Shown: piece by piece, positions 1-58,318 of the stretch | How positions within the stretch are numbered: the stretch's first letter is position 1 | Layout of the letters: every line of letters begins with the position of its first letter | Assembly (NCBI GenBank): GCA_963787125.1 | Contig: CAWBBV010000007.1 | Span: 448,001 to 512,000 of the forward strand | Source: an uncultured delta proteobacterium | GTDB taxonomy: Bacteria; Desulfobacterota; Desulfuromonadia; Geobacterales; DSM-12255 | Direction of reading: 5' to 3' | Length of the DNA stretch: 64,000 nt | Notes under the pieces: model-generated | The model's input: only the letters and a program-made list of their open reading frames with translations | The model's database searches: none | Told to the model about the DNA's origin: nothing | Made by a program: the position numbers and the translations under genes

Positions 1-3000
1 CCAGGTAAAGCAGTCACCTGTTCCAGTGTTTACTGTCACGGTAATCGCCTCAAGACCGGCGATACCTCAGGTTCATACAAGAAACCGTATTGGAACTACT
101 CAGCGATGATCAATTACACTGACCCCGCTAACTCCTGTAACAAATGCCACGGTCTTCCGCCATCAGCCGGTACATCAATAACAACCCATACTGGCAAGAC
201 TCTTACCGGGGTAAACGCCTGCGCCAACTGTCATGGCTCTGTTGTTAACGCATCTGGTCAGATCATCAATAAAGAGCTTCATATCAATGGTCAGGTTGAT
301 GTTACCGCCGGTCACGAGTATAGCTTCGGTGGCTGGCGCCACATGCCGGGCGGCATCGGCTCCATCAAGGCTGCCTCACTCACTGATTTCACCGCCTGTA
401 CCGGCTGTCACTCCGGCACATCCGGCGGCAGCTACCCGGTTGCAAGCCGTGGCCAGGCTTCGCTATTGGTCTGTACGGTCTGTCACATTAACAACCCGAA
501 CTTCTACACTACGGGCTCCAAAGGCAGTTGCGGAGACTGCCACGGCAGCAATACCGCCGGGTACTATTCAACAGGTCAGCCAGACGGTAACGTCTTTCCG
601 AACAATAGCGGCAGTCACTCCGCCCACATCGCCCAGGGTTATGCCTGTGCTGATTGTCACAGTGGCCGCGGTACTGGAGTGAAAACTCACGGCAACTACT
701 CAGGTGTCAAGAAGACTACCTATATGAATATATCGATTGCCTTCAATACCACCAAAACCGGTACGGCAGTCAAATACGTCAACGGTGGCGGTACGCTTGC
801 TAATACCTCCTGCAACACTTCCTGGTGCCATGGCAGTAAGTCACCTGCCTGGGGTGCGCCGGTTCCTGCCCAGCAATGCGTTCGCTGCCACGGTTCGCAG
901 ACGCTTTCTTATGCCAATAACTCCTCTGCAACAATCGCCCCTGGTGGCAGTAATATTGATACCAACAGGACTGCCGGCGTAACCAATAGAGGCGGTGTGC
1001 ATCAAGAACACCTCAATGCAACTGATGGCATATCTGCCAAGATAAAATGCGGAGCCTGCCACGCCGGGCTTTCTACCAAGGCAGTTAATCACGCTCAACT
1101 CGATAACAGAACAACGGCAACAGTTGTTTTTAACGGTCTTGCTGTCGCTAATAGTCATGGAGCAGCTGGGATAGTTCGTACAAGTGGCATAATAACCTGT
1201 AACAACACCTACTGTCATACGGCGAAGAACAATTCCGGTCTCAACATGGCACCTACATGGAATAGTTCAACCTATCTGCCAGCTACCTTGACGGTTGCTG
1301 CTTGTACTCAGTGCCACGCGCTTCCTCCTTCAAGTGTTTCTTCTCACACGGGACTATCCGTAACATCATTCCCGATAGGTACTCAGTGTGGCGCTAATTG
1401 TCACTTGAACCTGAACACCGCAGCCACCACCTACGCTACCATATTTAATGACCCTTCTCAGCACATTGATGGAATTATTCAAGGTGGTGACTGCATAAGC
1501 TGCCACTCGGCTGTACAGGGTGCTCGTGCTCCGGTTGTCGGCCAGTTTGCTTCCCAATCTCACCATATACAGGGTGGCGAAGTGTTAACCAAGGCTTCTT
1601 GCTATAAGTGCCACTGGGAAGCTGATATTAATGGTGACGAAGACCCTGCCTATCATAGTAAAACTTCCGGTAAAGGTGTCAGCCTGGTCGTCTGGAAAGG
1701 TTCTGCTACACGACCAACTGTTGCTTCGGCTGCAACCCTGGTTTCTTACACAGCCAACGGCAGCAGAAGACAAATCCTGAAGCTTAATGATGTTTGTCTC
1801 GGTTGTCATGATTCGACAGTCAGAGCGACACCACCGTTCGGTACTTTCGCAACCGACCAGTACTCACCAGAACCGCGGATGACACCGGTACTTAGCAAGA
1901 CAAGTATTCTTTCCAGGTACTCTAGCACTCGTACTGTGCCTTGGAGTAACTACTCATTTACCAACTCTTCCGGTCAGGTTTCGCAGTACGGCACCAATAC
2001 CAAGAAGAACGTTACCAAAGCTCTTTCCGGCCACGGTAATGCAATCAAAAATCAGTTCCCGAGCTGGAATTCAACAACTGGTGGGTCTGGTGAAGATGAA
2101 GTCTCCGGCGTAAATGTTGATATTGCTGCCAGCCAGACGTTAAGTAAGTATCGTAACGTTCTTTGCTACGACTGCCACAACTCTCACGGCTCTGCTGCAG
2201 TTGGTGTTACCAGTTCCTACTCCAGCGCCACCGGTCGTTACAAAGGTGGATTGCTTAAAACTACTACTAACGGTCAGGGCGGCTATACAAATACTTACAC
2301 GCCTACTGCCAGAACCATCGCCTACAAGAGCTACAGTACACTGACAACACATGCAGCGACCTTCAATGCCGGCGCCAGCATCTGCAACGACTGTCATAAC
2401 ACCGACACTCGCAAGGTTACCTACGCAGGCGGCAGACCTTGGTCCATCCTGACAACCTACAGCTCCACCAAGCCGATTGTCGGTTACTGGAGCACACCAT
2501 ACTTCGATAACTACACATTCAATTCAGTCAAGCGGACTACCTACAAAATGGGTGGTGCACCAGGGACCATTAAAGACCAGCGTAAACCGATGGGCGGTCA
2601 CTACGGCTCCAGCGCCAACCTGGGTAATTACTCCGGTGTATCTCACAGCCAGAACATCAACGGCCTCTGTACTCCATGCCACGATCCGCACGGTGTATCC
2701 AGCGCCATGTCCGTTGTCAACCGTGGTAAATCAGTACCGATGCTCAAAGGCACCTGGGTAACCTCGCCATACCGCGAAGACAAAGCAACACCGGTCGTCA
2801 AACGTGGCGGCGGCAGTAACTTCACCGGTATGCCGGCAATGGGCGCAATGCCTGGTTACAACATTGACCAGAACTCATTGATCAACCTTGCGGCTCCAAC
2901 TGCCGGTGGCGCTGCACAAACAACAACCAAGAGCAATCAAAGGAAGCAGGCATTCACTGTCTTCCCAGGCGCTGCTGGCAACGCCCTTGCGCTGCACACA

Positions 3001-3585
3001 GAGAAAGATCCGGATCCGGCAGTTAATGCTGCTGCCAACTTCGCCGGTCTTTGTGTCGGTTGTCACCAGAAAGCGACACTGACCAACTCCACCGTTGCAC
3101 CTGCTGCCAGTAACTGGATGAGCAAAGAGCGGGTTCACCAGTCAGTAGCAGGCTGGGCAGCAACAAGCGGAGTCAATTTGAACGGCACTGTTCATGCTTA
3201 CACCTGCTCCAAGTGCCATGCGCCGCACGTTTCGCGTCTGCCACGGCTCATGATAACCAACTGCCTTGACGTAAGGCATACGAAACAGTCGGTTTCCGGT
3301 GGAGCGATTTCGGCCACAACCGTCGGCACCCCTGGTTTCACCTACGGCAACAACAACCAGAGCTTTGCAACGTCTGGTCGGGGTGCAGGCCGCTTCCCCT
3401 CTGGTGGTTCAAGGTACTCGGGAACACCTGGTTCAGCCCAGAACAACGGGCCGTGGTACTTCCAGACAGTTCAGCCGGCAGGTGTTACTTATCCTTCAAA
3501 CTGCCATAACGGAGTGAACGCAGGCGGCGGAGCAACAACTTACGCTCCAAACTTGCAGATCTGGAACAAAAAAACCCGCTGGTAA
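1..3585 (+). CDS. Giant multiheme c-type cytochrome with CxxxxCH/CxxCH (Geobacter-type) repeats; 5'-truncated by the window edge
   Basis: Frame 1 is open from base 1 (PGKAVTCSSVYCHGN...) into the 106..3585 ORF. I count 17 CxxCH, 3 CxxxxCH (CSSVYCH, CNTSWCH, CNNTYCH) and 1 CxxxCH (CGANCH). Very Thr/Ser/Gly/Asn-rich; ends QIWNKKTRW. Confidence 0.95.
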   Translation, partial: PGKAVTCSSVYCHGNRLKTGDTSGSYKKPYWNYSAMINYTDPANSCNKCHGLPPSAGTSITTHTGKTLTGVNACANCHGSVVNASGQIINKELHINGQVDVTAGHEYSFGGWRHMPGGIGSIKAASLTDFTACTGCHSGTSGGSYPVASRGQASLLVCTVCHINNPNFYTTGSKGSCGDCHGSNTAGYYSTGQPDGNVFPNNSGSHSAHIAQGYACADCHSGRGTGVKTHGNYSGVKKTTYMNISIAFNTTKTGTAVKYVNGGGTLANTSCNTSWCHGSKSPAWGAPVPAQQCVRCHGSQTLSYANNSSATIAPGGSNIDTNRTAGVTNRGGVHQEHLNATDGISAKIKCGACHAGLSTKAVNHAQLDNRTTATVVFNGLAVANSHGAAGIVRTSGIITCNNTYCHTAKNNSGLNMAPTWNSSTYLPATLTVAACTQCHALPPSSVSSHTGLSVTSFPIGTQCGANCHLNLNTAATTYATIFNDPSQHIDGIIQGGDCISCHSAVQGARAPVVGQFASQSHHIQGGEVLTKASCYKCHWEADINGDEDPAYHSKTSGKGVSLVVWKGSATRPTVASAATLVSYTANGSRRQILKLNDVCLGCHDSTVRATPPFGTFATDQYSPEPRMTPVLSKTSILSRYSSTRTVPWSNYSFTNSSGQVSQYGTNTKKNVTKALSGHGNAIKNQFPSWNSTTGGSGEDEVSGVNVDIAASQTLSKYRNVLCYDCHNSHGSAAVGVTSSYSSATGRYKGGLLKTTTNGQGGYTNTYTPTARTIAYKSYSTLTTHAATFNAGASICNDCHNTDTRKVTYAGGRPWSILTTYSSTKPIVGYWSTPYFDNYTFNSVKRTTYKMGGAPGTIKDQRKPMGGHYGSSANLGNYSGVSHSQNINGLCTPCHDPHGVSSAMSVVNRGKSVPMLKGTWVTSPYREDKATPVVKRGGGSNFTGMPAMGAMPGYNIDQNSLINLAAPTAGGAAQTTTKSNQRKQAFTVFPGAAGNALALHTEKDPDPAVNAAANFAGLCVGCHQKATLTNSTVAPAASNWMSKERVHQSVAGWAATSGVNLNGTVHAYTCSKCHAPHVSRLPRLMITNCLDVRHTKQSVSGGAISATTVGTPGFTYGNNNQSFATSGRGAGRFPSGGSRYSGTPGSAQNNGPWYFQTVQPAGVTYPSNCHNGVNAGGGATTYAPNLQIWNKKTRW

Positions 3586-3593
3586 CAGCAAAT

Positions 3594-3618
3594 GGCGGGG
3601 ATCATCGCGATCCCCGCC
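3594..3618 (+). other. GC-rich stem-loop between the cytochrome and the peptide ORF (no U-tract on + strand; possible mRNA stabiliser or partial terminator)
   Basis: GGCGGGGATC-atcgc-GATCCCCGCC, a perfect 10-bp stem followed by TAAAAATA rather than a T run. Confidence 0.7.
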
Positions 3619-3667
3619 TAAAAATAAGCATGATAAGTCTGGTAAATAATAAAAGGAGGTGCCTGCA

Positions 3668-3727
3668 ATGAAAAAGAGCTACGTTACACCGAAAATCACA
3701 GGTAGTGCAGTTGTTCATCCTTGCTAA
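3668..3727 (+). CDS. 19-aa peptide MKKSYVTPKITGSAVVHPC, putative RiPP-like precursor or leader peptide
   Basis: AAAGGAGGT Shine-Dalgarno (3652-3660) 7 nt before the ATG; TAA stop at 3725-3727; lies between a stem-loop and a terminator; contains KxYxxP; below the ORF-track size cutoff. Confidence 0.8.
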   Translation: MKKSYVTPKITGSAVVHPC

Positions 3728-3749
3728 CACAACCGCATAAATTATGATG

Positions 3750-3783
3750 AAAATGGGGTCGTGCTTGCGACCCCATTTTTTTT
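3750..3783 (+). terminator. Rho-independent terminator ending the cytochrome-peptide transcript
   Basis: AAAATGGGGTCGT-gctt-GCGACCCCATTTT stem running into a T8 tract. Confidence 0.85.
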
Positions 3784-3796
3784 ACCCTCTTTTCTA

Positions 3797-3825
3797 TTGA
3801 CTGCCCCCATTGTTACAATTACTCT
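3797..3825 (+). promoter_or_regulatory. Possible sigma70 promoter for the downstream glycosylation operon
   Basis: TTGACT-17 nt-TACTCT, ~40 nt upstream of the GT2 start. Confidence 0.35.
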
Positions 3826-3863
3826 TGAAAAATTAAAATATATGCAAGGTCCCGAAATCAAGC

Positions 3864-4769
3864 ATGAAACTGATCATCCAGATACCATGTTTCAACGAGG
3901 AAAATACCCTTCCGCCCACTCTGGCTGCACTTCCCCGCAGAGTGGAGGGTTTCGATATTGTTGAATGGCTGGTTATTGACGACGGCAGCAGTGATCGAAC
4001 TGCAGAAATTGCTAAAAAACATGGTGTTGATCATATAGTCAGACTGGAGAAGAACAGTGGCCTGGCCGCTGCCTTCATGGCCGGAATAAAATTTTCCCTT
4101 GCCAGGGGAGCAGATATAATCGTCAATACGGATGCTGATAATCAATACAATGCCGCCGATATACCCCTCCTAATTGAACCGATTTTGGCCGGTAAAACCG
4201 GTTTTGTAATCGGCCTCAGGCCTGTCTATGAAATCAAAGAGATCCCTTTACTGATAAAGTTTTTGCATAAAGCAGGGAGTATTGCAGTCATGAAGGCAAG
4301 TGGGACAACTGTCACTGATCCTCCAAGCGGCTTCAGGGCTTTCTCTCGTGAAGTAGCCGAAAATCTGCGTGTTTACAACAGGTATACCTATACTCTGGAA
4401 ACGATAATTCAAGCCGGCAACCGGGGGCTACAGATCGAGACTGTCAAGATTAGAGTCAATATGGAGAAGCTTAGACCCTCCCGGCTTATGTCCTCGCCTT
4501 ACAGCTATGTTCTCAAGTCTTCACTAATAATCCTGCGCAGCCTGCTGCGCTATAACCCGTTGCGTTTCATACTTCTTTTTTGTTTGCCGCTGCTTATTAC
4601 TGCGGCTTTCGCCTCTATCTACATTTATTTCTGGCAGAGCGATTTTTTGGCCGTTACAGTTTTATCGGTTGCGGCTGGAGCGCTGCTTTTCCTCTCGATC
4701 GTCTCATTACCGGTTATTTTCTCCTGTGGAGATTATGCTGAAAACAGTGCCGCTGGAGGGACTCGTTAA
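3864..4769 (+). CDS. GT2 glycosyltransferase, polyprenol-phosphate sugar synthase (DPM/DPG)-like, with C-terminal TM helices
   Basis: IQIPCFNEE, IDDGSSD, TDADNQY, DPPSGFRAFSR motifs. Confidence 0.9.
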   Translation: MKLIIQIPCFNEENTLPPTLAALPRRVEGFDIVEWLVIDDGSSDRTAEIAKKHGVDHIVRLEKNSGLAAAFMAGIKFSLARGADIIVNTDADNQYNAADIPLLIEPILAGKTGFVIGLRPVYEIKEIPLLIKFLHKAGSIAVMKASGTTVTDPPSGFRAFSREVAENLRVYNRYTYTLETIIQAGNRGLQIETVKIRVNMEKLRPSRLMSSPYSYVLKSSLIILRSLLRYNPLRFILLFCLPLLITAAFASIYIYFWQSDFLAVTVLSVAAGALLFLSIVSLPVIFSCGDYAENSAAGGTR

Positions 4770-5410: not shown

Positions 5411-7055
5411 GGGGTACTATTGCCAAAGCGAGCCGCAGCTTGAGGAAGGACTCAAACGATTTCTGCTAAGGAGCGTGCCGAGGATTCTTACCCAGCTTGA
5501 CAGGGATCCCGATTCGCCAACGTTCGGCTGTTTTGACCGTGATTTCTGGCACTACCGGATTCGCGATTTTTCTTCCATCGTGCTGCAGCAGGGGGCACTG
5601 GTTCTCCAGACGCTGCACAACTATCCGGATAGTGATAACCCGCTCTACAAAAATCCGCAAACTCTTTCCTGGATAGATGCCTGCCTGTCTTTCTGGGCCA
5701 CTCAGCAGCTGCCTTCCGGCGCATTCAATGAATATTACCCCAATGAAGAGGGCTTTCCGCCGACTGCCTTTTCTCTTTACGCCGTTGCGTTGATCTTTAA
5801 AGAGCGAGGCTTTCCTGAAGCAATGCCTGCGGTCCTGCATACTGTGCGTAAAGCTGCTGACTGGCTTCTCTCAATTCAGGAGAGTCAGGCTCTCAATCAG
5901 GAGGCAGTCGCTCTTGCCGCCCTTGTACTCTCTTCACGGATTCCGTCGGTAAATATTGATATGGTGAAGCTGGAAAAGAGGCTCGAAGTTTTGTTTGCTG
6001 CCCAATCTGCAGAAGGCTGGTTCCCAGAGTATGGTGGGGCAGATAGCGGCTACCTTTCGGTGACACTTGACGCGCTTGCAGTGTATTTTGATCTGACCGG
6101 TGATCCAAGAGCCGAAATTGCGATGAACAGAGCTTTGGAATTTATCAGCCAGTTGATCTCGGTCTCCGGGACAACTCCGGTGATGATTAATTCCAGAAAT
6201 ACCGATTACATTGCACCCTACGGACTTATCAGGATGGCTGCGAGTAGTCCGCTTGCCAGAAGCGTTGTGGAGGCGCTTTTCAGTACAACCGAAAATCCGG
6301 CCCACTTCCTGAACGCCACTGATGACAGATATCTTTGCCACTATATCTACCACTCCTGTTTTCGCGGCCTGGAACAGTTGTCTCGAATGACAGTTCAAAA
6401 AGCGGCTCTCCCCTGTGAAGAGGGGAGTGACAGATATTACCCTGATGCCGGCATTCATACTCTCCATATTCCAGAGTGCAGATCGATATATATTGCGGCT
6501 CGCAAGGGTGGAGTCTATTACCTCTATAATACTGAAGGAATCGTCTCTGCCGATTACGGCTGGCGTTATAAGGATGGTAAGGGGAGGGTGGCGCTGACTC
6601 ACTGGCAGCATCCGGAAAACCTTGCTGTTTGCAGTCAAAAAGCCGCCTCAATAGATATTGAGGCAAGCGGGGTAGTTTCAATTCATGGCTGGCCTGACTC
6701 GACACCTCTGCGGCATGGAGCACTGAGAGTGCTCAGTTATTTTTTAGGGAAAGGGATCATTGTCTGGCTGAAAAAAGTAATGATTTTCAAGGCCGAGAGC
6801 TATGGTTTAAATTACAGCCGCAAAATCAGGGTTACGGAGTCAGGGATTTACTGTAGCGACAGATTTAGTGGGGCAGGCATCCGGAACTTTAATCCGGTTC
6901 CGGCTCCCGCATACTCTCTGCGCCATGTAGCAAGCGCTGCAAATTTCAACAGGGAAGAGCTTGCCGGTTCGGCAGGCGTCAAGAGAACATTTGCACACAC
7001 TGCCGAAAGTCTTACTATCACCAGCACCATTGATTTTACGGAGATGCTGGGATGA
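5403..7055 (+). CDS. Hypothetical protein, probable alpha/alpha-barrel (glycan lyase/epimerase or prenyltransferase-repeat-like) fold
   Basis: Long ORF; repeated QxxxGxF motifs (QQLPSGAF, AQSAEGWFPEYGG); start at 5403 overlaps the nitroreductase stop (ORF track starts it at 5388). Confidence 0.6.
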   Translation: MNKGYYCQSEPQLEEGLKRFLLRSVPRILTQLDRDPDSPTFGCFDRDFWHYRIRDFSSIVLQQGALVLQTLHNYPDSDNPLYKNPQTLSWIDACLSFWATQQLPSGAFNEYYPNEEGFPPTAFSLYAVALIFKERGFPEAMPAVLHTVRKAADWLLSIQESQALNQEAVALAALVLSSRIPSVNIDMVKLEKRLEVLFAAQSAEGWFPEYGGADSGYLSVTLDALAVYFDLTGDPRAEIAMNRALEFISQLISVSGTTPVMINSRNTDYIAPYGLIRMAASSPLARSVVEALFSTTENPAHFLNATDDRYLCHYIYHSCFRGLEQLSRMTVQKAALPCEEGSDRYYPDAGIHTLHIPECRSIYIAARKGGVYYLYNTEGIVSADYGWRYKDGKGRVALTHWQHPENLAVCSQKAASIDIEASGVVSIHGWPDSTPLRHGALRVLSYFLGKGIIVWLKKVMIFKAESYGLNYSRKIRVTESGIYCSDRFSGAGIRNFNPVPAPAYSLRHVASAANFNREELAGSAGVKRTFAHTAESLTITSTIDFTEMLG

Positions 7056-16297: not shown

Positions 16298-17160
16298 CTT
16301 GCCGCAGTGAGTGGATAAATTTGATCATCGATAAGCTCGCTTGTATTGACTGCCGGTCAAGTCGCTTGAAATTAGATGAATTGTCTGGAGAACTAAGATG
16401 TCAGGATTGTGACGGCATATTCAAGATTGTTAATAACATTCCCTCTTTTGTAGCGGCTGAGTTGATGCACTGCAGTGAAGTTCCTCTTCTTGAACGCGAA
16501 AAGTTTCTAGAAATGAAGAAAACAGCCTATTCAGGCGGTTCTTTTGTAGGCCGGATGTACAACCATTATCACCGCTATGCAGCGCAGAAACGGATTGAGT
16601 TGAGCGAGAAGCGGCTTACGGTAGATATCGGCTTCGGGGTCGGTGAGCACTATCCGTTCATCACGGAAAAAGAGAAAGTTGCCGGAGCGTTCATCGGCGT
16701 AGATCTAGACCGGTTCAAGCTGGAGCATTTTTGCTCGCTCCACCCCGACATACCGGTGCTGCAGGCGAGCGCATTCAGGCTGCCGTTTGCTGCCGATAGT
16801 GTCGCTGTGGTGCAGTTGCTGGCAACGCTTGAGCATTTCCCCCCGGACGAGATAACCGGCCTGCTTGATGAAGCTCTGAGGATACTGCAGCCCTGGGGGG
16901 CCCTGATCGTCTGTTATCCGGCAGAAGGCGGGCTGCTGCTGGGGCTCTGCCAGAGAGTAATGCACGCTTACCTTAAGAGGCGGACAGGTTTTGACCTTGA
17001 CCAGGGGGCGATCCACAGGCATCTCACCGGTGCAGGGGAGATAAGGGCTATCCTGGGTGGGCGCAAAGAGCTTGAGCGACAGGAGAGCAGTTTCTATCCT
17101 TTCTGGATCAGGTCAGTCAATCTTTCGCTGTTTGTAAACGAGATCTACAGGAAAAGGTGA
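16288..17160 (+). CDS. Class I SAM-dependent methyltransferase with N-terminal Trm112-like Zn ribbon
   Basis: CIDC...CQDC..FKIVNNIPSF, then VDIGFGVG, GVDLD, RLPF, TLEHF, RILQPWG. Confidence 0.85.
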   Translation: MVLTCRSEWINLIIDKLACIDCRSSRLKLDELSGELRCQDCDGIFKIVNNIPSFVAAELMHCSEVPLLEREKFLEMKKTAYSGGSFVGRMYNHYHRYAAQKRIELSEKRLTVDIGFGVGEHYPFITEKEKVAGAFIGVDLDRFKLEHFCSLHPDIPVLQASAFRLPFAADSVAVVQLLATLEHFPPDEITGLLDEALRILQPWGALIVCYPAEGGLLLGLCQRVMHAYLKRRTGFDLDQGAIHRHLTGAGEIRAILGGRKELERQESSFYPFWIRSVNLSLFVNEIYRKR

Positions 17161-18188
17161 CAGGGGTGCGGTTTCAGCATTACATTCAAAAGCTCGACCT
17201 CTTTCTGACCCTGCTGCTTAAGGGGCGGCTTTCCTGGCGCAAGCTGCGTAATTTTTTAGCCAATGCCACTGCCTACAGGAAGCTTGTCGAGGTGTCAGGC
17301 ACGGCGCCGGCTGTTGTCCTCTTCGATGTCTCCAACCGTTGCAACCTGCACTGCAGAACATGCCGCAGGTCGACAACCGATATCGTCGATCTCTCCGGGC
17401 AGACGGAGAAACCTGTGAAGCTCGGTGACATGGCCCTTGACGGGTATTTGCGAATAATCGATAGCCTTTCTAAGGATATGCTCCTGGCGACCCTTTATGT
17501 TTCCGGCGAACCGCTTCTGAACAGGGAGATTGTGGCGATGGTCGCGCACACCTCCCAAAAGAGAGTTGCTTCGATGCTTTCAACCAACGGGATGCTGCTG
17601 GACGACTCGCTCTCAACCAGCCTCCTTGAAGCCGGTCTTGATTATCTGAAAGTGGCAGTAAGCGGGTTCACCCAGGACGTCTACGGGATCTATCATCTGG
17701 GCGGAGATGTCGCCAGGGTTCTGGAGAACGTAGCGAAATTCGAGCGGATTCGTAGACAGATCGGCAAACGCTGCCTGGTGGTGATTGATTATATCCTTTT
17801 CGAACATAACCGGCATCAGGCGGACGACATCAGGCGTTTCTGCCGCGAAAACGGCATCAGATTCTCGCTTCGCTATGGTCGGACGCTTGAGGGTTCTGAG
17901 TTGCAGAGCCCCGCTGAGAGCAAGCCGCACTATCAACCTAAAACCGGGCCGTGCGACTGGCTCTGGAAGATTATGGTGTTCTGTGCGGACGGCAGGTCTG
18001 TCCCCTGCTGCCAGTTTGCCACCTGTGCCGAGTCCCCTTTTGTGATGGGAGTCGGCGGCGAAGCTGCTGCAACGATTTGGAACGGCACTGCTTACAGGGA
18101 GCTGCGCAGAGTTCACGCAGCAAGCGGGCGCAAGGGACTACCGCTTTGTGACGGCTGCTTTTATTCAGGCATTGATTTCCAGAGTTGA
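17157..18188 (+). CDS. Radical SAM protein with SPASM/twitch domain
   Basis: CNLHCRTC, SGEPLL, STNGMLL; C-terminal CDWLW...PCC...CDGC. Confidence 0.92.
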   Translation: MTGVRFQHYIQKLDLFLTLLLKGRLSWRKLRNFLANATAYRKLVEVSGTAPAVVLFDVSNRCNLHCRTCRRSTTDIVDLSGQTEKPVKLGDMALDGYLRIIDSLSKDMLLATLYVSGEPLLNREIVAMVAHTSQKRVASMLSTNGMLLDDSLSTSLLEAGLDYLKVAVSGFTQDVYGIYHLGGDVARVLENVAKFERIRRQIGKRCLVVIDYILFEHNRHQADDIRRFCRENGIRFSLRYGRTLEGSELQSPAESKPHYQPKTGPCDWLWKIMVFCADGRSVPCCQFATCAESPFVMGVGGEAAATIWNGTAYRELRRVHAASGRKGLPLCDGCFYSGIDFQS

Positions 18189-22720: not shown

Positions 22721-24542
22721 CGTTGTGTCAAACTTCTTGACATGTCTTTTTGCTTTTCAGTTCTAATTTCAATGCATTACCAATCAAAGTCTTGCCTCCC
22801 CCCGTGATTCTGGTTAAGAATGCCAGTTATGGAGGGCTAGCTCATGTCGTACCTATCCAAAACTGCCCGGTTTGTTGTCTGGATTTGCTCCAAGTTTACA
22901 AAGACCGAGATTGAACAGATCGTCGTCGGGTTGTCAGATGTCCTCGAAAATCGTAATCCTGAAGTTAAGCCAAAGGACGATTTCAAAGAGAAACATCCGA
23001 ACTACAGAAACTTTATTGTCGATCCCAAGCCGCCACTGACTGAGCCCCCAAAGTTTAAAAAAAAGACCTCGATCAAAAAGACTACCGGCAACTCCTGATT
23101 GAGTACGAAACACTTCACGGAAAGTCTCTTGCTCCGGTCAAGCTCCGGGCGGGTTCATCACCGGTTCCAGTGCATGTCACCTGTCCCTGCTGCGGAGCGC
23201 CAAATACTTATCTCTACTTCAACGACGGAAAGAAGCGCTCTCAAGTTCTCTGCAAGGTTTGCTCTCAACTCTTCCAACTCCAACAGCGCTTCAGAACCAA
23301 CAGAAAGTCAAAGCTCTTCTGTCCCCATTGCGGGCTGGCTCTCTTCAGGTGGAAGTCGCAAAAGGAAGTGACCATCCACAAGTGCCCAAATGATAACTGT
23401 CCTCACCGTATCCAGGCGCTTGCCAAGCTCAATAAAGCCGAGAAAGAGCTGATGAAAAAGAAAAGTTCTCAGTTCAAAATCAACTACCAGTACCGCGAAT
23501 ATCACTACAAACCGGAAGAGTTGGAACTCTCTTCTCCGGACAAACCGCCGGTCGAACTGGCGAGAATCCATAACAGCGAAAACGTGCTTGGCCTGATTCT
23601 GACTTTCTATGTTTCATTCGCCGTTCCGGCCAGAAAAACTGCTCAAATCCTGCGCGAAGTCTTCTGTATCAAGGTTTCTCATCAGACAGTTCTCAATTAT
23701 GCCGCTGGCGCCGCCTGGCACTGCCACCGATTCAATCTCAAGCATAAAGGCCATATCGATAATATCTCTGCAGGTGATGAGACCTACATCAAGATCCTGG
23801 GCAAGCACCATTATGTCTTCTTTTTTATCTCGGCAAAGAACCTGAAAATCTCCGCCTATCACGTGGCCGATAACAGGGGCACTCAGCCTGCCATTATCGC
23901 TATGAATGAAGCCATCAGGACTGCTTCTGCCGATCAGCAAATAACCCTTGTCAGCGACGGAAACCCTTCTTATCCAGCTGGCATTCATTTCATCAATGCC
24001 CAGACTGATGATTCCCAGACGATTCAGCACAAAAAGGTTATTGGCCTCCAAAACCTTGATGCCGAGTCCGAAGAGTACAGATCCTTCAAGCAGCTCGTTG
24101 AGCGGCTCAACAGAACCTTCAAGTATCATGTAAGGCCAGCAGCAGGATTCAACAGCACAAACGGTGCGGTATCTTTAACTACGCTGTTTGTGACCCACTA
24201 CAACTTCCTCAGGCCTCACATGTCGCTAAAATATCTACCACCGGTGCCTTTGCAGGAGTTGAAGGCACTGCCGACCATTCAGGCTAGATGGACCAAGATC
24301 CTCTCGCTAGCTGCCTGACTTCCCGTCTTCAAAGATCAATTTACTGATTGTTGTTTTAATCTGACCAACTATCTCACGTGCCTGGTCACAGAGTGGCTTG
24401 CCCAAAATTCAAGCCAGTAACCACAAAGTAGTGAAGTCACAGTCTGGACAGACTCGGAAAAGATGCAGATGAAGGGCATCGTTTACTTTCGAGTACTTTC
24501 CATTTCAATATCCCGGCTTTTCATGAAACTTTTGACACTATC
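22721..24542 (+). mobile_element. Insertion sequence (DDE transposase, IS6-like/unclassified), 1822 bp
   Basis: 8-bp direct repeat CACAGAGT at 22713-22720 and 24543-24550; imperfect terminal IRs sharing GTGTCAAA / TTTGACAC. Confidence 0.88.
22844..24318 (+). CDS. DDE transposase in two frames (orfA 22844..23098, orfB to 24318), joined by a -1 shift at A-AAA-AAG
   Basis: Zn-finger CxxC pairs; GDETYIKI, VSDGNPSY, LVERLNRTFK (DDE); TTTAAAAAAAAG at 23054-23065; the -1 frame is open from 23059 into orfB. Confidence 0.85.
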
Positions 24543-25769: not shown

Positions 25770-26894
25770 ATGGGCTACCTGGATTACGTGAAGTATGGCA
25801 AGCGACTGCTAATAAAACAGGGCAGCCCATTGTACGTCGTTTTCTTTATCACCACCAAATGCAATGCCAGATGCAAGCATTGTCTTCTCGGGAATCAGGC
25901 TGTTGCTACCACAAATGATCTAAGCATTGACGAAATTGAAAAGATATCGGCCAGTATGGACGATTTTCTGTTTTTGCTACCAACCGGTGGAGAGCCTTTT
26001 ATTCGTACCGATATTGCCGAGATTGTGCATATCTTCCACAAAAACAACAGGATACGCAATGTTGTGATCCCGACTAACGGTTCATTGACCGACAGGGTTC
26101 TGGGAAATGTGGAAAAGATACTGCAACAGAACCCCAAACTGACAGTCGGTATCGATATTTCGATAGATGGTCTAGGTGAGTTGCATGACCAGATACGCGG
26201 TGTGCCGGGTTTATTTGACACGGCCGTTACTACGTATAGGGAGTTGCGCAAACTGGCGAAGCGCTACCCGCAACTTAATGTTAATGTTGAATCGACGGTT
26301 TCCAGTTACAATCAGGATGGTTTACCGGAGCTGTACAATTTTCTGGTAAATGAACTGGGTGTCTCAACCATATTTACCCTGTTGACCCGCGGCAAGCCGA
26401 AAGATCCGGCGAGCATTTTTGTTGATGTCGCCAAGTATGAGGCTTACGCCGCCAGGCTGGAAAATGATATTAAAAATAACGTGCTTACCGGTTACAATAA
26501 TTTCCCTTTTTGCGATGTCATTAACGCCAAGCGTATTGTCCGTAACCAGGTAATCGCCCGGACTGCGAAAGAAAACCGCTATATGCTGCCATGCTATGCC
26601 GGCAGACTGGGAACGGCTATTTTCAGCAACGGCGAGGTGTACCCCTGTGAGCTGTTGACAGATCATAAACTGGGTAACCTCCGGGAGTGTAATTATGACT
26701 TTAAAGAACTCTGGTCCAGCCCCAAAGCCGTTGAAGCCCGTAAATTTATCTGCGAGAGCAAATGTTTTTGCACGTATGAATGTTTTATGACCTTAAACAT
26801 CTTGTTCAACCTCAAGATGTGGCCCCAATTATTTAAGGAATGGGCAGCGCTGAAGTTGGCTAAATCCGGCAAGTATTCAGGCCGACTTTCATAA
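25770..26894 (+). CDS. Radical SAM/SPASM protein
   Basis: CNARCKHC, TGGEPF, ISIDG; CYAG...GEVYPCE...CFCTYEC. Confidence 0.92.
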   Translation: MGYLDYVKYGKRLLIKQGSPLYVVFFITTKCNARCKHCLLGNQAVATTNDLSIDEIEKISASMDDFLFLLPTGGEPFIRTDIAEIVHIFHKNNRIRNVVIPTNGSLTDRVLGNVEKILQQNPKLTVGIDISIDGLGELHDQIRGVPGLFDTAVTTYRELRKLAKRYPQLNVNVESTVSSYNQDGLPELYNFLVNELGVSTIFTLLTRGKPKDPASIFVDVAKYEAYAARLENDIKNNVLTGYNNFPFCDVINAKRIVRNQVIARTAKENRYMLPCYAGRLGTAIFSNGEVYPCELLTDHKLGNLRECNYDFKELWSSPKAVEARKFICESKCFCTYECFMTLNILFNLKMWPQLFKEWAALKLAKSGKYSGRLS

Positions 26895-28991: not shown

Positions 28992-30035
28992 ATGCGAGTA
29001 AAGAAACTGCTGAATATGGGGATGGCATCACTCAAGGCCAATCTTACCGGTGCAAAAACTCCGCTCAATGTAATGATATCTGTTACCAATCGCTGTCCGG
29101 CCCGGTGCAGTTACTGCAATATTCCGAACCGGCAGCAGCGGGAGATGACGACGGAGGAGATAATCCGTCTTTTTGACGAATTGAAACTGCTGGGAACCCA
29201 GCGGATCGCCCTCTGGGGGGGGGAACCGCTGATTCGTGACGATATCGGCGATCTCATCGAATATGCCAAGAAAAAGTGCGGTTTTTTTGTCAGCATCGAT
29301 ACGAACGGCTATCTCTTGCCGCAGAAGATAGCGCTGCTTGATCCGGTTGATGTTGTGGTGATAAGCTTTGACGGGCCGAAGGATGTGCACGACGAGAATC
29401 GTGAGCCGGGAAGTTACGAGAAAGTTATGGAGGCTCTGCGGGTCGCCTGCCGGACTCACAATGTTTTTACGATAACTGTCCTGACGAACAGAAATGTCGG
29501 CCATATCGATTTTATCCTCGAAAAAGCCCGAGAGCTCGGTTTTTCATGCACCTTTCAGCTGCCGCATCACACCAAGACTCTTGCTTCAGATAATGTGCAG
29601 ACGTTTGTTTCGGATAACGAGGAGTATCGCCAGGCAATCAGGCATCTGCTCAAACGTAAGCGGGAGGGGTGGCCGATTGTCTCCAGCTATCAGTATCTTA
29701 AGCGCCTTCTACAGTGGGATGACTACAGTACCTACGTATCGCCTGACAGAAAAGGGCTCACCTGCTGGGCCGGCAGCCTCTACTGCAATGTTGATACGGA
29801 TGGTTCAGTGTATCCCTGCTCCGGTACGGTCGGAGTCGTGCCGGCAAAGAACTTCCTTGATATCGGCTTCAAGGAAGCCTTTGCCGGCATCAGTAAGCCT
29901 GAGTGCAACTCCTGTATCGCTTCCTGTTTTACAGAATACAACTTCATGCACTCCTTCCAGTTGCAGGTTATCTGGAACTGGCTCGGTTATACGAAAAAAA
30001 GGGCCGTTCCTGCCACGGTGAAGCGCGTTGAATAA
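28992..30035 (+). CDS. Radical SAM protein with SPASM/twitch-like C-terminus
   Basis: CPARCSYC, WGGEPL, ISFDG; CWAG...DGSVYPC...CNSCIASC. Confidence 0.92.
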   Translation: MRVKKLLNMGMASLKANLTGAKTPLNVMISVTNRCPARCSYCNIPNRQQREMTTEEIIRLFDELKLLGTQRIALWGGEPLIRDDIGDLIEYAKKKCGFFVSIDTNGYLLPQKIALLDPVDVVVISFDGPKDVHDENREPGSYEKVMEALRVACRTHNVFTITVLTNRNVGHIDFILEKARELGFSCTFQLPHHTKTLASDNVQTFVSDNEEYRQAIRHLLKRKREGWPIVSSYQYLKRLLQWDDYSTYVSPDRKGLTCWAGSLYCNVDTDGSVYPCSGTVGVVPAKNFLDIGFKEAFAGISKPECNSCIASCFTEYNFMHSFQLQVIWNWLGYTKKRAVPATVKRVE

Positions 30036-57241: not shown

Positions 57242-58318
57242 TCATTTTATGTATTGGACAATGTTACGCAGATAGAACGTGCAATCGGAAAGGATGTTGA
57301 CGCTGATCGCGCATTCATATGTACAGGAACATTTTGTAGCTTTCATCCAGCGTCTGGTTTCTTTGGCAGATTCATTCCGCCATAATTTCTTGAGATCGTA
57401 GTCAGCATGACGGAGGTTGCCGAAGGGTCTGTCGAGGATCTCGCATGGATACACCGTCCCGTCGGCAGTGATTACTCCGAAAAGTGACCCGGCCTGACAA
57501 GGGCTGAAAGGTCGGGCTTCTCTCAACTGCGCGGCTACCTGCTCTCTAGACAAAACATTTTTGATGTTGAGAATTCTGCCTCGCATCGAATCTCTGCCGT
57601 ACTCCAGCAGAAGCCCACTTGCAGTATCTTGAGTGATCTTTTCGGAGAGGTTTTTATAGATTCTTGTCATTTCGTCCAATTCATTTAAGGGTACTTTGAA
57701 AACACCTGCACTCCTTGCCATGATGATCTGAATCGCATCGACTTGTTGCTTTGAGATCAAATGGTCGTATAGATCGACTGCATCTCGCCAGTTTTGCGGC
57801 GAAATGGTGACGGATACAATAGGATTGATGAATGGGCGGAAAGCTTTTATGGCAGCGAAAGTAGCAATGCTGTTAGCGAACATGCCATTGACGGAGGTGA
57901 GTAGGTCATGTTTATTGCCGATCTGGTTGATTGACAGGGAAAAGAAGATCGACTTCTCTGGATGTCTGTCATGAATGGTTTCGCAGAATTGCACTATGCG
58001 AGAGGTAAAGAATCCGTTTGTGGAGATGAAGAGACTTTGCGCAGATGAATTCGTTAAGTAGAGGTCAGCTATGTCAGTGATGTCGTTTCTTACAAACGGC
58101 TCGCCACCGGTAATGTTGACATTCATGAGGGTTTGCGGAAGATTTTTTGTTATCAGCGCGATCTCTTGAAGTGATAGCTCCTCAGCGCAACTTGATGAAG
58201 CGCTTAAGTCGACAAAACAAAACGGACATCTGGCATTACAACGCTCGGTGACGAAGTGAACGAGTGTTGCGGGGTGATTTCTCGAAACGAGTAAGTTTGA
58301 TATCTGACTCAACCGCAT
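57242..58318 (-). CDS. Radical SAM/SPASM protein; paralog of 25770..26894
   Basis: CNARCPFC, TGGEPF; CQAG...GTVYPCE...CSCTYEC. Confidence 0.92.
   Translation of the reverse strand: MRLSQISNLLVSRNHPATLVHFVTERCNARCPFCFVDLSASSSCAEELSLQEIALITKNLPQTLMNVNITGGEPFVRNDITDIADLYLTNSSAQSLFISTNGFFTSRIVQFCETIHDRHPEKSIFFSLSINQIGNKHDLLTSVNGMFANSIATFAAIKAFRPFINPIVSVTISPQNWRDAVDLYDHLISKQQVDAIQIIMARSAGVFKVPLNELDEMTRIYKNLSEKITQDTASGLLLEYGRDSMRGRILNIKNVLSREQVAAQLREARPFSPCQAGSLFGVITADGTVYPCEILDRPFGNLRHADYDLKKLWRNESAKETRRWMKATKCSCTYECAISVNILSDCTFYLRNIVQYIK

Follow-up and report, generated by a model that had tools for sequence, protein, structure and literature searches.

A conserved 19-residue peptide encoded behind a giant multihaem cytochrome as the probable precursor of the GeoRSP radical SAM system

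Organization of the locus

The window, meaning the whole stretch of 64,000 nucleotides that was analysed, belongs to contig C7 and opens within the 3' part of a multihaem c-type cytochrome gene. This gene is followed by a very short open reading frame lying between two RNA hairpins. The features, all on the forward strand, are as follows.

1..3585, + strand: 3' part of a multihaem c-type cytochrome of the CxxxxCH/CxxCH family (TIGR01904, 41.5 bits against a cut-off of 27)
3594..3618, + strand: GC-rich 10-bp hairpin (stem 3594-3603/3609-3618), from the RNA fold, immediately 3' of the cytochrome stop codon
3652..3660, + strand: Shine-Dalgarno sequence AAAGGAGGT, 8 nt 5' of the peptide ATG
3668..3727, + strand: 19-codon peptide gene MKKSYVTPKITGSAVVHPC plus TAA, proposed GeoRSP precursor and the sole copy of its family in this genome
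3749..3783, + strand: intrinsic terminator, a 14-bp hairpin running into T8, from the RNA fold (hairpin approximately 3749-3780, T run 3776-3783)

The cytochrome gene starts 1901 nt ahead of the window. Its full product of 1828 aa carries 28 haem motifs (23 CxxCH and 5 CxxxxCH) and a signal-peptide-like N-terminus, and it is the giant cytochrome that the initial annotation had placed ahead of the peptide. It represents the last long gene before the peptide, with its stop codon at 3583-3585; upstream of it lies a gene for a 2677-aa cytochrome with 41 CxxCH/CxxxxCH motifs.

The peptide MKKSYVTPKITGSAVVHPC is the product of 19 sense codons between the ATG at 3668-3670 and the TAA at 3725-3727, and the GGAGG of AAAGGAGGT ends 8 nt ahead of the ATG. 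In the list of open reading frames the same frame was entered from an upstream GTG (3659..3727, 22 aa). The initial annotation had described a small ORF, deliberately expressed in appearance, with a ribosome-binding site, ATG and TAA; these elements were confirmed at 3652-3660, 3668 and 3727. One copy of the peptide family was found in this genome, the one inside the window.

Folding of the region 3586-3800 gave a minimum free energy of −67.2 kcal/mol versus a shuffle mean of −47.4 (z = −4.9; 0 of 200 shuffles were as good), and the fold contained both the upstream 10-bp stem-loop and the downstream intrinsic terminator claimed earlier. The upstream hairpin has no U tract on the + strand, and its probable role is in the processing or stability of the RNA where the cytochrome cistron gives way to the peptide cistron; by folding, a sequence-divergent hairpin was found at the equivalent site in 6 of 11 cytochrome-linked homologous loci. 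As read from the fold, the downstream terminator ends the cytochrome-peptide transcription unit. Hairpins with a T-rich tail were present 3' of the peptide gene in all 11 cytochrome-linked loci folded, the T run not always being long, and we read them as terminators. A simple terminator scan did not list the + strand terminator at 3749..3783 and assigned the upstream hairpin to the minus strand; the + strand miss is probably explained by the A/U-extended stem, which uses up part of the T run. An Rfam search of positions 3300-4000 returned nothing near threshold, the best match being L20_leader (19.5 bits versus 58.7).

Conservation and coding signature of the peptide family

Of 201 genomes sampled from the order, 60 contained homologues of 18-20 aa, with the consensus MKK..Y.KP[KR][VI]VG...VHPC-stop. 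Spacing within the family is fixed: counted from the C-terminus, Tyr is at −15, Pro at −12 and Gly at −8, while Val-His-Pro-Cys forms the last four residues. The Y-x-x-P-x-[I/V] motif is likewise invariant in its spacing and is followed by only 9 residues in the peptide. Conservation is strictest at the extreme C-terminus VHPC, where Cys is always last. An HMM search of the fetched loci, independent of the regular expression, recovered the exact VHPC + stop end in 65 of 69 distinct matches.

The 63 copies examined correspond to 61 distinct coding sequences. Over their last 15 codons the summed column entropy was 8.15 at the first codon position, 8.03 at the second and 23.29 at the third, a synonymous-site bias in which third-position variation dominates. 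All three stop codons are in use (TGA in 41 copies, TAA in 17, TAG in 5), and 61 of the 63 have a Shine-Dalgarno-like GGAG, GAGG or AGGA no more than 20 nt ahead of the start.

Beyond the phylum, a degenerate DNA pattern retrieved 127 stretches, all of them short ORFs preceded by a Shine-Dalgarno sequence and ending in VHPC + stop. Tyr or Phe occupied position −15, which was outside the search pattern, in 126 of the 126 assessable stretches. Records titled Nitrospirae and Polyangia (taxon as given in the record title) carry the peptide together with GeoRSP, and across Geobacterales and Desulfuromonadales the family is multi-copy per genome. The 19-aa ORF is a genuine coding gene, far beyond chance; it is conserved as a protein across orders and, according to record titles, across phyla.

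The VHPC peptides constitute a previously unnamed family of 18-20 aa that is almost never annotated. Among 15 exact 20-aa variants, 14 were absent from a collection of ~15 billion proteins; the remaining one is listed as hypothetical protein GSU2897. Literature searches for the VHPC peptide returned no paper on the family, and those for GSU2897 and GSU2905-2910 returned none either, supplementary tables of Geobacter transcriptome and proteome papers being outside the search.

In family-library searches the peptide matched no NCBIfam or Pfam model. Three identities were tried and rejected. The window peptide was absent from the matches to the geopeptide model TIGR04229, with E allowed to reach 10. 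The lasso precursor model NF033528 reached 13.6 bits against a cut-off of 33, over the leader part only, and the peptide contains no Asp or Glu that could serve as an acceptor. An assignment to MftA or PqqA was rejected on the lack of any NCBIfam match at E up to 10 and on the C-terminus, which is Val-His-Pro-Cys.

Co-occurrence with the GeoRSP system

GeoRSP, which combines radical SAM/SPASM and PqqD proteins, is curated as a system but orphan; we know of no identified substrate for it, and a literature search on GeoRSP, TIGR04302-4 and SPASM/PqqD in Geobacter found no paper on the system. In the genome under study all three of its members score above their cut-offs at the end of contig C5: the PqqD-family protein (TIGR04302; C5:334-660, 145.9 bits versus 100), the radical SAM (rSAM)/SPASM protein (TIGR04303; C5:527-1651, 581.8 bits versus 400) and, directly 3' of the rSAM gene, the SPASM-only paralogue (TIGR04304; C5:1648-2526, 300.8 bits versus 300). 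The system as a whole is divided between one end of contig C10 and one end of C5, as expected from the initial claim that the maturase is encoded outside the window. The peptide sits on another contig, in the terminator-bounded cytochrome operon. Near this genome's own GeoRSP operon, neither C5:1-465 nor the stretch ahead of the NosD-like gene on C10 contained a second peptide copy.

The closest solved relative of the GeoRSP rSAM protein is PqqE (6c8v, E = 4.7e-22). For the PqqD protein, the lasso RRE TbiB1 was the one solved chain to match (5v1u, E = 0.007). Among peptide-maturase models, MftC scored highest on the rSAM protein (171.7 bits here, range 171.7-199.8), below its cut-off of 265. 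Two other systems in the genome have members of related type: a geopeptide (C24:100453-100515, TIGR04229, 36.1 bits versus 30) next to its own system, and a second PqqD-family ORF (C20:5597-5794) beside a lasso B2-like protease, a sulfotransferase and an ABC transporter.

Co-occurrence was scored in 201 genomes of the order, the GeoRSP rSAM being defined as TIGR04303 above its curated cut-off. The peptide was present in 60 genomes and the rSAM in 61; 56 genomes had both, 4 the peptide only, 5 the rSAM only and 136 neither, so that 9 of the 201 were discordant. The Fisher test gave p = 9e-39, a value that overstates the case because related genomes are not independent. Within genera the two genes have a patchy distribution and go together: each occurs in 11 of 39 genomes of one genus (g13) and in 1 of 24 of another (g18), in the latter case in the same genome, and the same tracking was seen within genera g7, g15, g16, g4 and g23. 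The GeoRSP rSAM gene accompanies the peptide in 56 of its 60 genomes, and the present genome has the PqqD and SPASM genes in addition. No peptide was found in the 5 rSAM-only genomes even at E up to 10; these assemblies consist of 190-480 contigs.

In a phylum sample of 401 genomes, the rSAM exceeded its cut-off in 16, and 15 of these carried the peptide. Four genomes of this sample with an rSAM-like protein lacked the peptide, 3 of them being below the family cut-off; lax thresholds returned no convincing candidate in them. Among genomes titled as other taxa, the GeoRSP rSAM was above cut-off in 4 of the 5 peptide carriers tested.

Gene neighbourhoods and a possible role as a protein partner

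Of the 61 GeoRSP loci, 23 have their nearest peptide gene 5-12 kb upstream on the same strand, mostly at 7.5-7.9 kb, where it heads the operon. The gene order there is PEP > NosD-like > CarboxypepD_reg > 185 aa > ResB-like > ArsP_1 permease > cupin > PqqD > rSAM/SPASM > SPASM. A conserved YedE transporter adjoins the cassette. A different arrangement was seen in 7 genomes from other families: the peptide gene is located 32-142 bp downstream of the rSAM gene, with a PqqD ORF just upstream, forming a minimal PqqD-rSAM-peptide cassette amid housekeeping genes. Peptide and GeoRSP are thus linked by both co-occurrence and synteny.

Most copies of the peptide gene adjoin large secreted proteins, not the maturase. 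A multihaem ORF was directly 5' of the peptide in only 26 of the 63 copies examined, and copies in other lineages adjoin surface proteins without haem motifs (Big_1/Invasin_D3, FG-GAP+UnbV_ASPIC, Reg_prop, fn3, CarboxypepD_reg, NosD-like). These large neighbour proteins have no common fold or motif. Such siting would also fit a role tied to the secreted proteins themselves.

According to one alternative, the peptide stays unmodified and assists large secreted proteins, be it as a micro-protein partner, as an assembly factor or as a stabiliser, while GeoRSP acts elsewhere and merely shares the neighbourhood and the phyletic pattern. The copies behind multihaem ORFs and those flanking other large surface proteins agree with this, as does the orientation of the gene here, the same as that of the cytochrome and bounded by a terminator. 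However, MKKSYVTPKITGSAVVHPC as read has neither a signal peptide nor a transmembrane stretch, and periplasmic partners would therefore be out of its reach unaided. The 7 distant genomes, where the peptide directly follows the rSAM gene and no giant protein adjoins, also speak against this alternative, and so does the NCBIfam name of the PqqD protein, peptide chaperone, which implies a peptide client. We regard the partner role as unlikely.

Proposed role and remaining alternatives

We consider it likely that the ORF is translated into the 19-aa precursor peptide of the GeoRSP system. The initial annotation had proposed it as the missing GeoRSP precursor, and conservation, codon bias, co-occurrence and synteny support that proposal on genomic grounds. 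In the mechanism we suggest, the stand-alone PqqD-family protein (TIGR04302, C5) would act as an RRE that binds the N-terminal K-x-Y-x-x-P-x-[I/V]. It would present the peptide to the GeoRSP radical SAM/SPASM enzyme (TIGR04303) and its SPASM-only partner (TIGR04304), and these enzymes may modify the invariant C-terminal VHPC. Since Cys is required as the very last residue, a chemistry that needs a free C-terminus is suggested. Candidate reactions include MftC-like oxidative decarboxylation or cross-linking, and Cys-centred formation of a thioether or heterocycle. As conservation of the core extends across phyla, the probable product is not an antibiotic but a small molecule that resembles a cofactor or binds metal/sulfur. 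Export and delivery could be carried out by the ArsP-type permease, the NosD-like beta-helix protein, the ResB-like protein and YedE, with large periplasmic or extracellular proteins, for example the co-transcribed giant cytochrome, as putative recipients.

Several observations count against the precursor model, among them the 9 discordant genomes of the order, the 4 rSAM-like genomes of the phylum sample without the peptide, and the siting of most copies beside large secreted proteins. By comparison with other systems, the 9 residues past the motif also leave little room between a leader held by an RRE and the site of modification, and in this genome the peptide does not adjoin GeoRSP.

The peptide could instead be a trans-acting leader or activator which, bound by the PqqD protein, switches the rSAM enzyme onto another substrate such as the cytochromes and is itself left unmodified. 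It is leader-like and very short, NF033528 aligns to MKKSYVTPKIT (E = 0.05), and it is encoded alongside candidate client proteins. Nevertheless, conservation is tightest at the VHPC end and not only in the leader-like part, which is the pattern expected of a modified core, and the large neighbours lack a shared fold or motif. This makes a trans-acting leader quite improbable.

Still another assignment would make the peptide a precursor for a different RRE pathway of this genome, either the lasso-type cluster on C20 or the geopeptide system on C24. The PqqD-family ORF at C20:5597-5794 near a lasso B2-like protease points in this direction, and a YxxPx[L/I] motif is typical of lasso precursors. 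We find this assignment very hard to sustain: there is no Asp/Glu for a macrolactam, only 9 residues follow the motif, and the NF033528 score is 13.6 against 33; TIGR04229 gives no match up to E 10, and the geopeptide system has its own adjacent precursor; finally, the phyletic pattern follows GeoRSP. That no functional peptide exists, the ORF having arisen by chance or its translation serving RNA stability, termination or regulation only, accords with a very short frame between two hairpins, but it is given almost no weight because it is already contradicted by the codon pattern (a conserved protein with mostly synonymous third-position changes, three stop codons, the Shine-Dalgarno sequence kept, hundreds of copies), and no Rfam family reached threshold.

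Returning to the precursor reading, we put forward a more specific version as a tentative idea, itself rather doubtful at present. The VHPC peptides may be stoichiometric precursors of a new peptide-derived cofactor or of an adaptor carrying metal or sulfur (selenium). This would be made by GeoRSP in the cytoplasm, exported by the ArsP-type permease and installed by NosD-like/ResB-like machinery on giant cytochromes and other surface proteins, with one precursor copy per client operon. If true, the cofactor or adaptor reading would add an unseen component to the extracellular electron-transfer proteins of Geobacter and its relatives, and would explain the conserved YedE transporter beside the cassette.

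More generally, a concrete candidate substrate has now been named for GeoRSP, and the system therefore becomes directly testable. The siting of the peptide genes at the ends of giant cytochrome and surface-protein operons raises the possibility that a modified peptide acts in the maturation or function of these proteins, which is of relevance to extracellular electron transfer.

Comparison with known peptide systems

The GeoRSP definition covers three enzymes only (TIGR04302, TIGR04303 and TIGR04304). All three are present here, and the peptide family, itself outside any NCBIfam or Pfam model, is co-occurring and syntenic with them.

Mycofactocin offers a close parallel: its precursor (MftA) is tiny and invariant at the extreme C-terminus, its PqqD-family chaperone (MftB) is a separate protein, and its radical SAM enzyme (MftC) is of the SPASM type. 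The C-termini differ, VHPC here versus Gly-Val-Tyr in MftA, and the GeoRSP partners are a NosD-like protein, an ArsP permease, a cupin and YedE instead of MftD, MftE and MftF. The mycofactocin paper by Haft applies the same co-occurrence logic and describes client enzymes encoded in many copies (PMC3023750).

GeoRSP also resembles the PQQ system (PqqA, PqqD, PqqE) in that PqqE is the nearest structure to its rSAM protein and the PqqD model matches its chaperone. PqqA is a highly conserved precursor of ~20 aa, sometimes multi-copy, whose core is Glu-x-x-x-Tyr; the VHPC peptide, in contrast, lacks a PqqA-like Glu/Tyr pair. The GeoRSP operon showed no homologue of pqqB or pqqC.

With the lasso leader/RRE pair (TbiB1 and the TbiA leader) the peptide shares the Y-x-x-P-x-[L/I/V] spacing near the N-terminus and the weak NF033528 alignment. 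However, it is too short and has no macrolactam acceptor, and the GeoRSP operon is without a cyclase or B2 protease.

Geopeptide (TIGR04229/TIGR04280) and SbtM systems occur in the same organisms and likewise combine small precursors with SPASM-type maturases. As described in PMC9204691, SbtM acts on the side chain of a Cys or Sec, which it oxidises to form a thio(seleno)oxazole heterocycle. The GeoRSP rSAM protein, however, reached only 86.4 bits with the SbtM model, whose cut-off is 350, and the VHPC peptide has no GGUG/Sec motif.

A functional analogy is offered by QhpC, the gamma subunit of quinohaemoprotein amine dehydrogenase (~80 aa), which is encoded inside the qhp operon and matured by the radical SAM/SPASM enzyme QhpD. 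Limited to function as it is, the analogy supplies a precedent for a small Cys-cross-linked peptide that is made in the cytoplasm, exported and joined to a periplasmic haem c complex.

The peptide gene in the window

Direct reading of the sequence and RNA folding of positions 3586-3800 gave the following features around the peptide gene.

3594-3618: 10-bp GC stem immediately behind the stop codon of the long gene upstream, from the fold
3652-3660, plus strand: Shine-Dalgarno sequence AAAGGAGGT, read from sequence
3668..3727, plus strand: peptide ORF MKKSYVTPKITGSAVVHPC, with ATG at 3668, 19 sense codons and TAA at 3725-3727, read from sequence
about 3749-3783: 14-bp hairpin running into eight T, from the fold

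The fold was markedly stable against shuffles (z = -4.9). The upstream gene encodes a CxxxxCH/CxxCH cytochrome (TIGR01904 match) with a full length, including DNA beyond the window, of 1828 aa and 28 haem-binding motifs; it is preceded by another cytochrome, of 2677 aa and with 41 of these motifs. Sequence reading, fold and TIGR01904 match agree with the initial annotation, which had described the ORF, its ribosome-binding site, the two hairpins and the cytochrome accurately. According to the ORF list, an upstream GTG opens the same frame as the peptide ORF, and the opposite strand holds only short overlapping frames. No Rfam family came near threshold for the region around the ORF.

Further radical SAM/SPASM-type genes are located in the window at 17157-18188, 25770-26894 and 28992-30035 (plus strand) and at 57242-58318 (minus strand), within a cluster of glycosyltransferase, TPR and asparagine-synthase-like genes. 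None reached any curated family cut-off, GeoRSP included (31-49 bits). A transposase-like ORF at 23170-24318 (plus strand), with IS6/IS3 family models below their cut-offs, interrupts this cluster.

Conservation of the peptide family

The peptide ORF is a real, conserved coding gene. When 41 related genomes were searched at the DNA level, the 80 nt that span the Shine-Dalgarno sequence and ORF matched several genera at 79-87% identity, often about 470 nt past a match to the conserved C-terminal part of the cytochrome. Ten homologues from translated loci differed mostly by synonymous changes and used TAA, TAG and TGA as stops. Of 201 genomes in the order, 60 matched their profile, at 138 places in total and with one to six copies each; these genomes represent 19 of 38 genera. 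Homologous small ORFs are thus present in relatives. Summed column entropy over the last 15 codons of 61 distinct coding sequences was 8.15 at the first, 8.03 at the second and 23.29 at the third codon position, a clear synonymous-site bias, and an SD-like sequence preceded 61 of 63 copies.

Since the 63 copies had been selected by a regular expression demanding VHPC plus stop, hmmsearch was repeated on six-frame translations of all loci. VHPC plus stop formed the exact end of 65 of 69 distinct hits; the other four comprised one VQPC, two internal IHPC in longer Cys-rich frames and one noise hit. The family consensus is M-K-K-(0-2 residues)-Y-x-K-P-[KR]-[VI]-[VT]-G-x-x-x-V-H-P-C, in which Tyr -15, Pro -12 and Cys -1 keep a fixed mutual distance. 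The VQPC copy, the sole natural His substitution seen, is the operon-head copy of locus L075 (G024:C1:1779000-1797000, about 5500-5560, plus strand). The IHPC frames of L104 (G342:C3) and L106 (G583:C2) are 82 aa long, with an internal ...KKRIAGSANIHPCCNRA... weakly matching the profile; they may be longer relatives rich in Cys, or the match may be due to chance. Behind the last Cys, TGA was the most frequent stop (41 of 63 copies; 80 of 127 among the matches listed in a degenerate-pattern scan). Its read-through as selenocysteine is unlikely because TAA and TAG also occur.

Judged by model searches, the family is distinct from named small-peptide families. With E values up to 10 allowed, the geopeptide model TIGR04229 still did not match the ORF in the window; its match in the same genome is a different peptide, a geopeptide adjoining its radical SAM maturase TIGR04280 (C24:100357-101868). 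The sole NCBIfam match was a lasso leader model that covered the N-terminal eleven residues and stayed below threshold (13.6 bits against a cut-off of 33); the lasso precursor reading was rejected. Pfam had no match for a 20-aa homologue.

Co-occurrence of the peptide and GeoRSP

GeoRSP consists of a PqqD-family chaperone (TIGR04302), a radical SAM/SPASM protein (TIGR04303) and a SPASM-only protein (TIGR04304). The initial annotation had proposed the peptide as the missing GeoRSP precursor, with the maturase encoded outside the window. The genome has two PqqD-family ORFs. One is part of a lasso-type cluster on contig C20 (4097-7294: PqqD, B2-like protease, sulfotransferase, ABC transporter). 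At the beginning of contig C5, the second precedes the radical SAM/SPASM and SPASM-only genes, and this trio exceeded the curated cut-offs of all three models.

C5:27-2526: second half of the GeoRSP operon (cupin, PqqD, radical SAM, SPASM)
C10:14-6601, minus strand: upstream half (NosD-like to permease)

Besides its NosD-like beta-helix protein and ArsP-type permease, the C10 half, which runs in reverse orientation, encodes two smaller proteins. Because this half sits at the start of C10 and the rest at the start of C5, the operon is split by an assembly gap. The putative maturase genes are elsewhere, as anticipated, and the window copy is the only peptide copy in the genome by profile search.

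Across the order, the linkage of the peptide to GeoRSP is clear. The radical SAM gene was above cut-off in 61 of 201 genomes, and 56 genomes carried both it and the peptide, 4 the peptide only, 5 the enzyme only and 136 neither; a Fisher p-value for this table overstates the evidence because relatives are not independent. Three of the four peptide-only genomes are 78-81% complete, and the enzyme-only genomes are assemblies of 190-480 contigs. Both traits are patchy inside genera, yet they track one another: each was found in 11 of 39 genomes of genus g13, ten of them shared, and in the same single genome of 24 in g18. Tracking was also observed in g7, g4, g15, g16 and g23.

Organization of GeoRSP loci

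At 23 of the 61 GeoRSP loci, the closest copy of the peptide gene shared the strand and was located 5-12 kb upstream, in most cases 7.5-7.9 kb. Ten loci chosen for this spacing were fetched and repeated one gene-size pattern, with the peptide gene at the operon head. One, L078 (G016:C5:103000-120000), was annotated in full, in this order:

peptide, NosD-like beta-helix protein (853 aa), CarboxypepD_reg/Ig-like protein, 185-aa protein
ResB-like membrane protein, ArsP_1 permease with DUF4350, cupin
gap between cupin and radical SAM, where the PqqD ORF is expected as in the operon on C5
GeoRSP radical SAM/SPASM, GeoRSP SPASM-only, PhnD-like binding protein, TPR protein, YedE

Unlike these loci, the GeoRSP operon of the window's genome has no peptide gene upstream of it or of its NosD-like gene. 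Co-occurrence and synteny together provide independent genomic support for the proposed precursor role.

A putative selenium/sulfur transporter of the YedE family (TIGR04112, 340-414 bits against a cut-off of 200) lay beside the GeoRSP cassette in all seven loci checked in the order and in one distant genome, and a PhnD-like binding protein adjoined the cassette with it in each (L078 at 3-968; L075-L077, L080, L082, L083; distant L118 at 5638-6699). These neighbours hint that GeoRSP chemistry involves sulfur or selenium species.

Genes flanking the peptide copies

For 26 of 63 non-redundant peptide copies, the gene immediately upstream is an ORF carrying two or more haem motifs. In other lineages, flanking genes encoded Big_1/Invasin_D3 repeats, FG-GAP/UnbV_ASPIC, Reg_prop propellers, fn3, CarboxypepD_reg or NosD-like proteins. 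The common denominator is large secreted or surface proteins, not cytochromes as such. A hairpin with a T-rich tail, read as a terminator, followed the peptide gene in 11 of 11 cytochrome-linked loci; a GC hairpin of unrelated sequence followed the cytochrome stop in six. No peptide gene follows the paralogous 1480-aa cytochrome on contig C1 of the same genome.

Distribution beyond the order

Among 401 sampled genomes of the phylum, TIGR04303 matched 22 at E <= 1e-60, 16 of them over cut-off, and the peptide profile also matched 22; 18 genomes carried both. The peptide was present in 15 of the 16 genomes over cut-off. Two of the four peptide-only genomes hold internal IHPC frames and the other two genuine peptides. 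Three of the four enzyme-only genomes are below the TIGR04303 cut-off, and none of the four yielded a peptide even at lax thresholds. In seven genomes of three other families, the radical SAM gene is followed after 32-142 bp by the peptide gene, and in both of the annotated genomes a PqqD-like ORF overlaps the radical SAM start, so the three form a minimal PqqD-radical SAM-peptide cassette. One such cassette is set among housekeeping genes, the other after PhnD-like, YedE and small beta-helix protein genes.

The degenerate DNA pattern P-[KR..]-x-x-G-x-x-x-V-H-P-C-stop, scanned over one genome per prokaryote species, found at least 127 stretches; the matches listed were all SD-preceded ORFs of about 17-21 codons with a true stop. 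Position -15, absent from the pattern, was Tyr or Phe in all 126 assessable matches listed. Among these matches, 80 rows carried titles, of which 15 named Nitrospirae, Nitrospiraceae or Nitrospirota, one Polyangia and three other groups. The GeoRSP radical SAM gene was over cut-off in four of five other-taxon-titled genomes tested; the exception (G597, one of the three other-group titles) has a Geobacter-like peptide on a 6.5-kb contig. A sub-variant with an extra Cys (…G[SAFV][VA]CVHPC) occurred in L135-L137, L140, L204, L219, L220, L251, L252, L258 and L259, the first five titled Nitrospirae bacterium; four extra-Cys copies lie within 13 kb of one contig.

Existing records

In genome G034, the 20-aa peptide is identical to 'hypothetical protein GSU2897 [Geobacter sulfurreducens PCA]', and it also has an uncharacterised UniRef entry; of 15 variants looked up, the remaining 14 were absent from the protein collection. 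Among openly accessible main texts, no paper was found that deals with GSU2897, with GeoRSP or its TIGRFAM numbers, or with a PqqD-dependent precursor in Geobacter. Background is provided by Haft's mycofactocin analysis (PMC3023750) and by a perspective describing SbtM (PMC9204691).

Proposed function and comparison with known systems

The analysis establishes that the peptide gene is real, that it is conserved at the protein level and that it is linked to GeoRSP; the function proposed here is an inference from these results. The closest solved relative of the GeoRSP radical SAM enzyme is PqqE, and the enzyme scores best against MftC among models of peptide maturases. The only solved relative of the GeoRSP PqqD protein is the lasso RRE TbiB1, which reads a YxxPxL leader motif. 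Given this kinship, the three-part organization shared with known systems and the conservation of VHPC with Cys last, we consider it likely that the peptide is the GeoRSP substrate and is modified at its C-terminus. In that case, the product would more probably be cofactor-like or metal/sulfur-binding than an antimicrobial peptide. With low confidence, we suggest that the operon permease could export the product for delivery to large extracytoplasmic proteins.

In mycofactocin, chemistry takes place at the extreme C-terminus. The peptide resembles its precursor in having a conserved C-terminus, and VHPC with an invariably last Cys points to C-terminal chemistry here too. The peptide family is new and belongs to a known kind of system: like PQQ and mycofactocin, GeoRSP combines a SPASM enzyme with a stand-alone PqqD chaperone and, in the candidate peptide, a tiny precursor under strong conservation.
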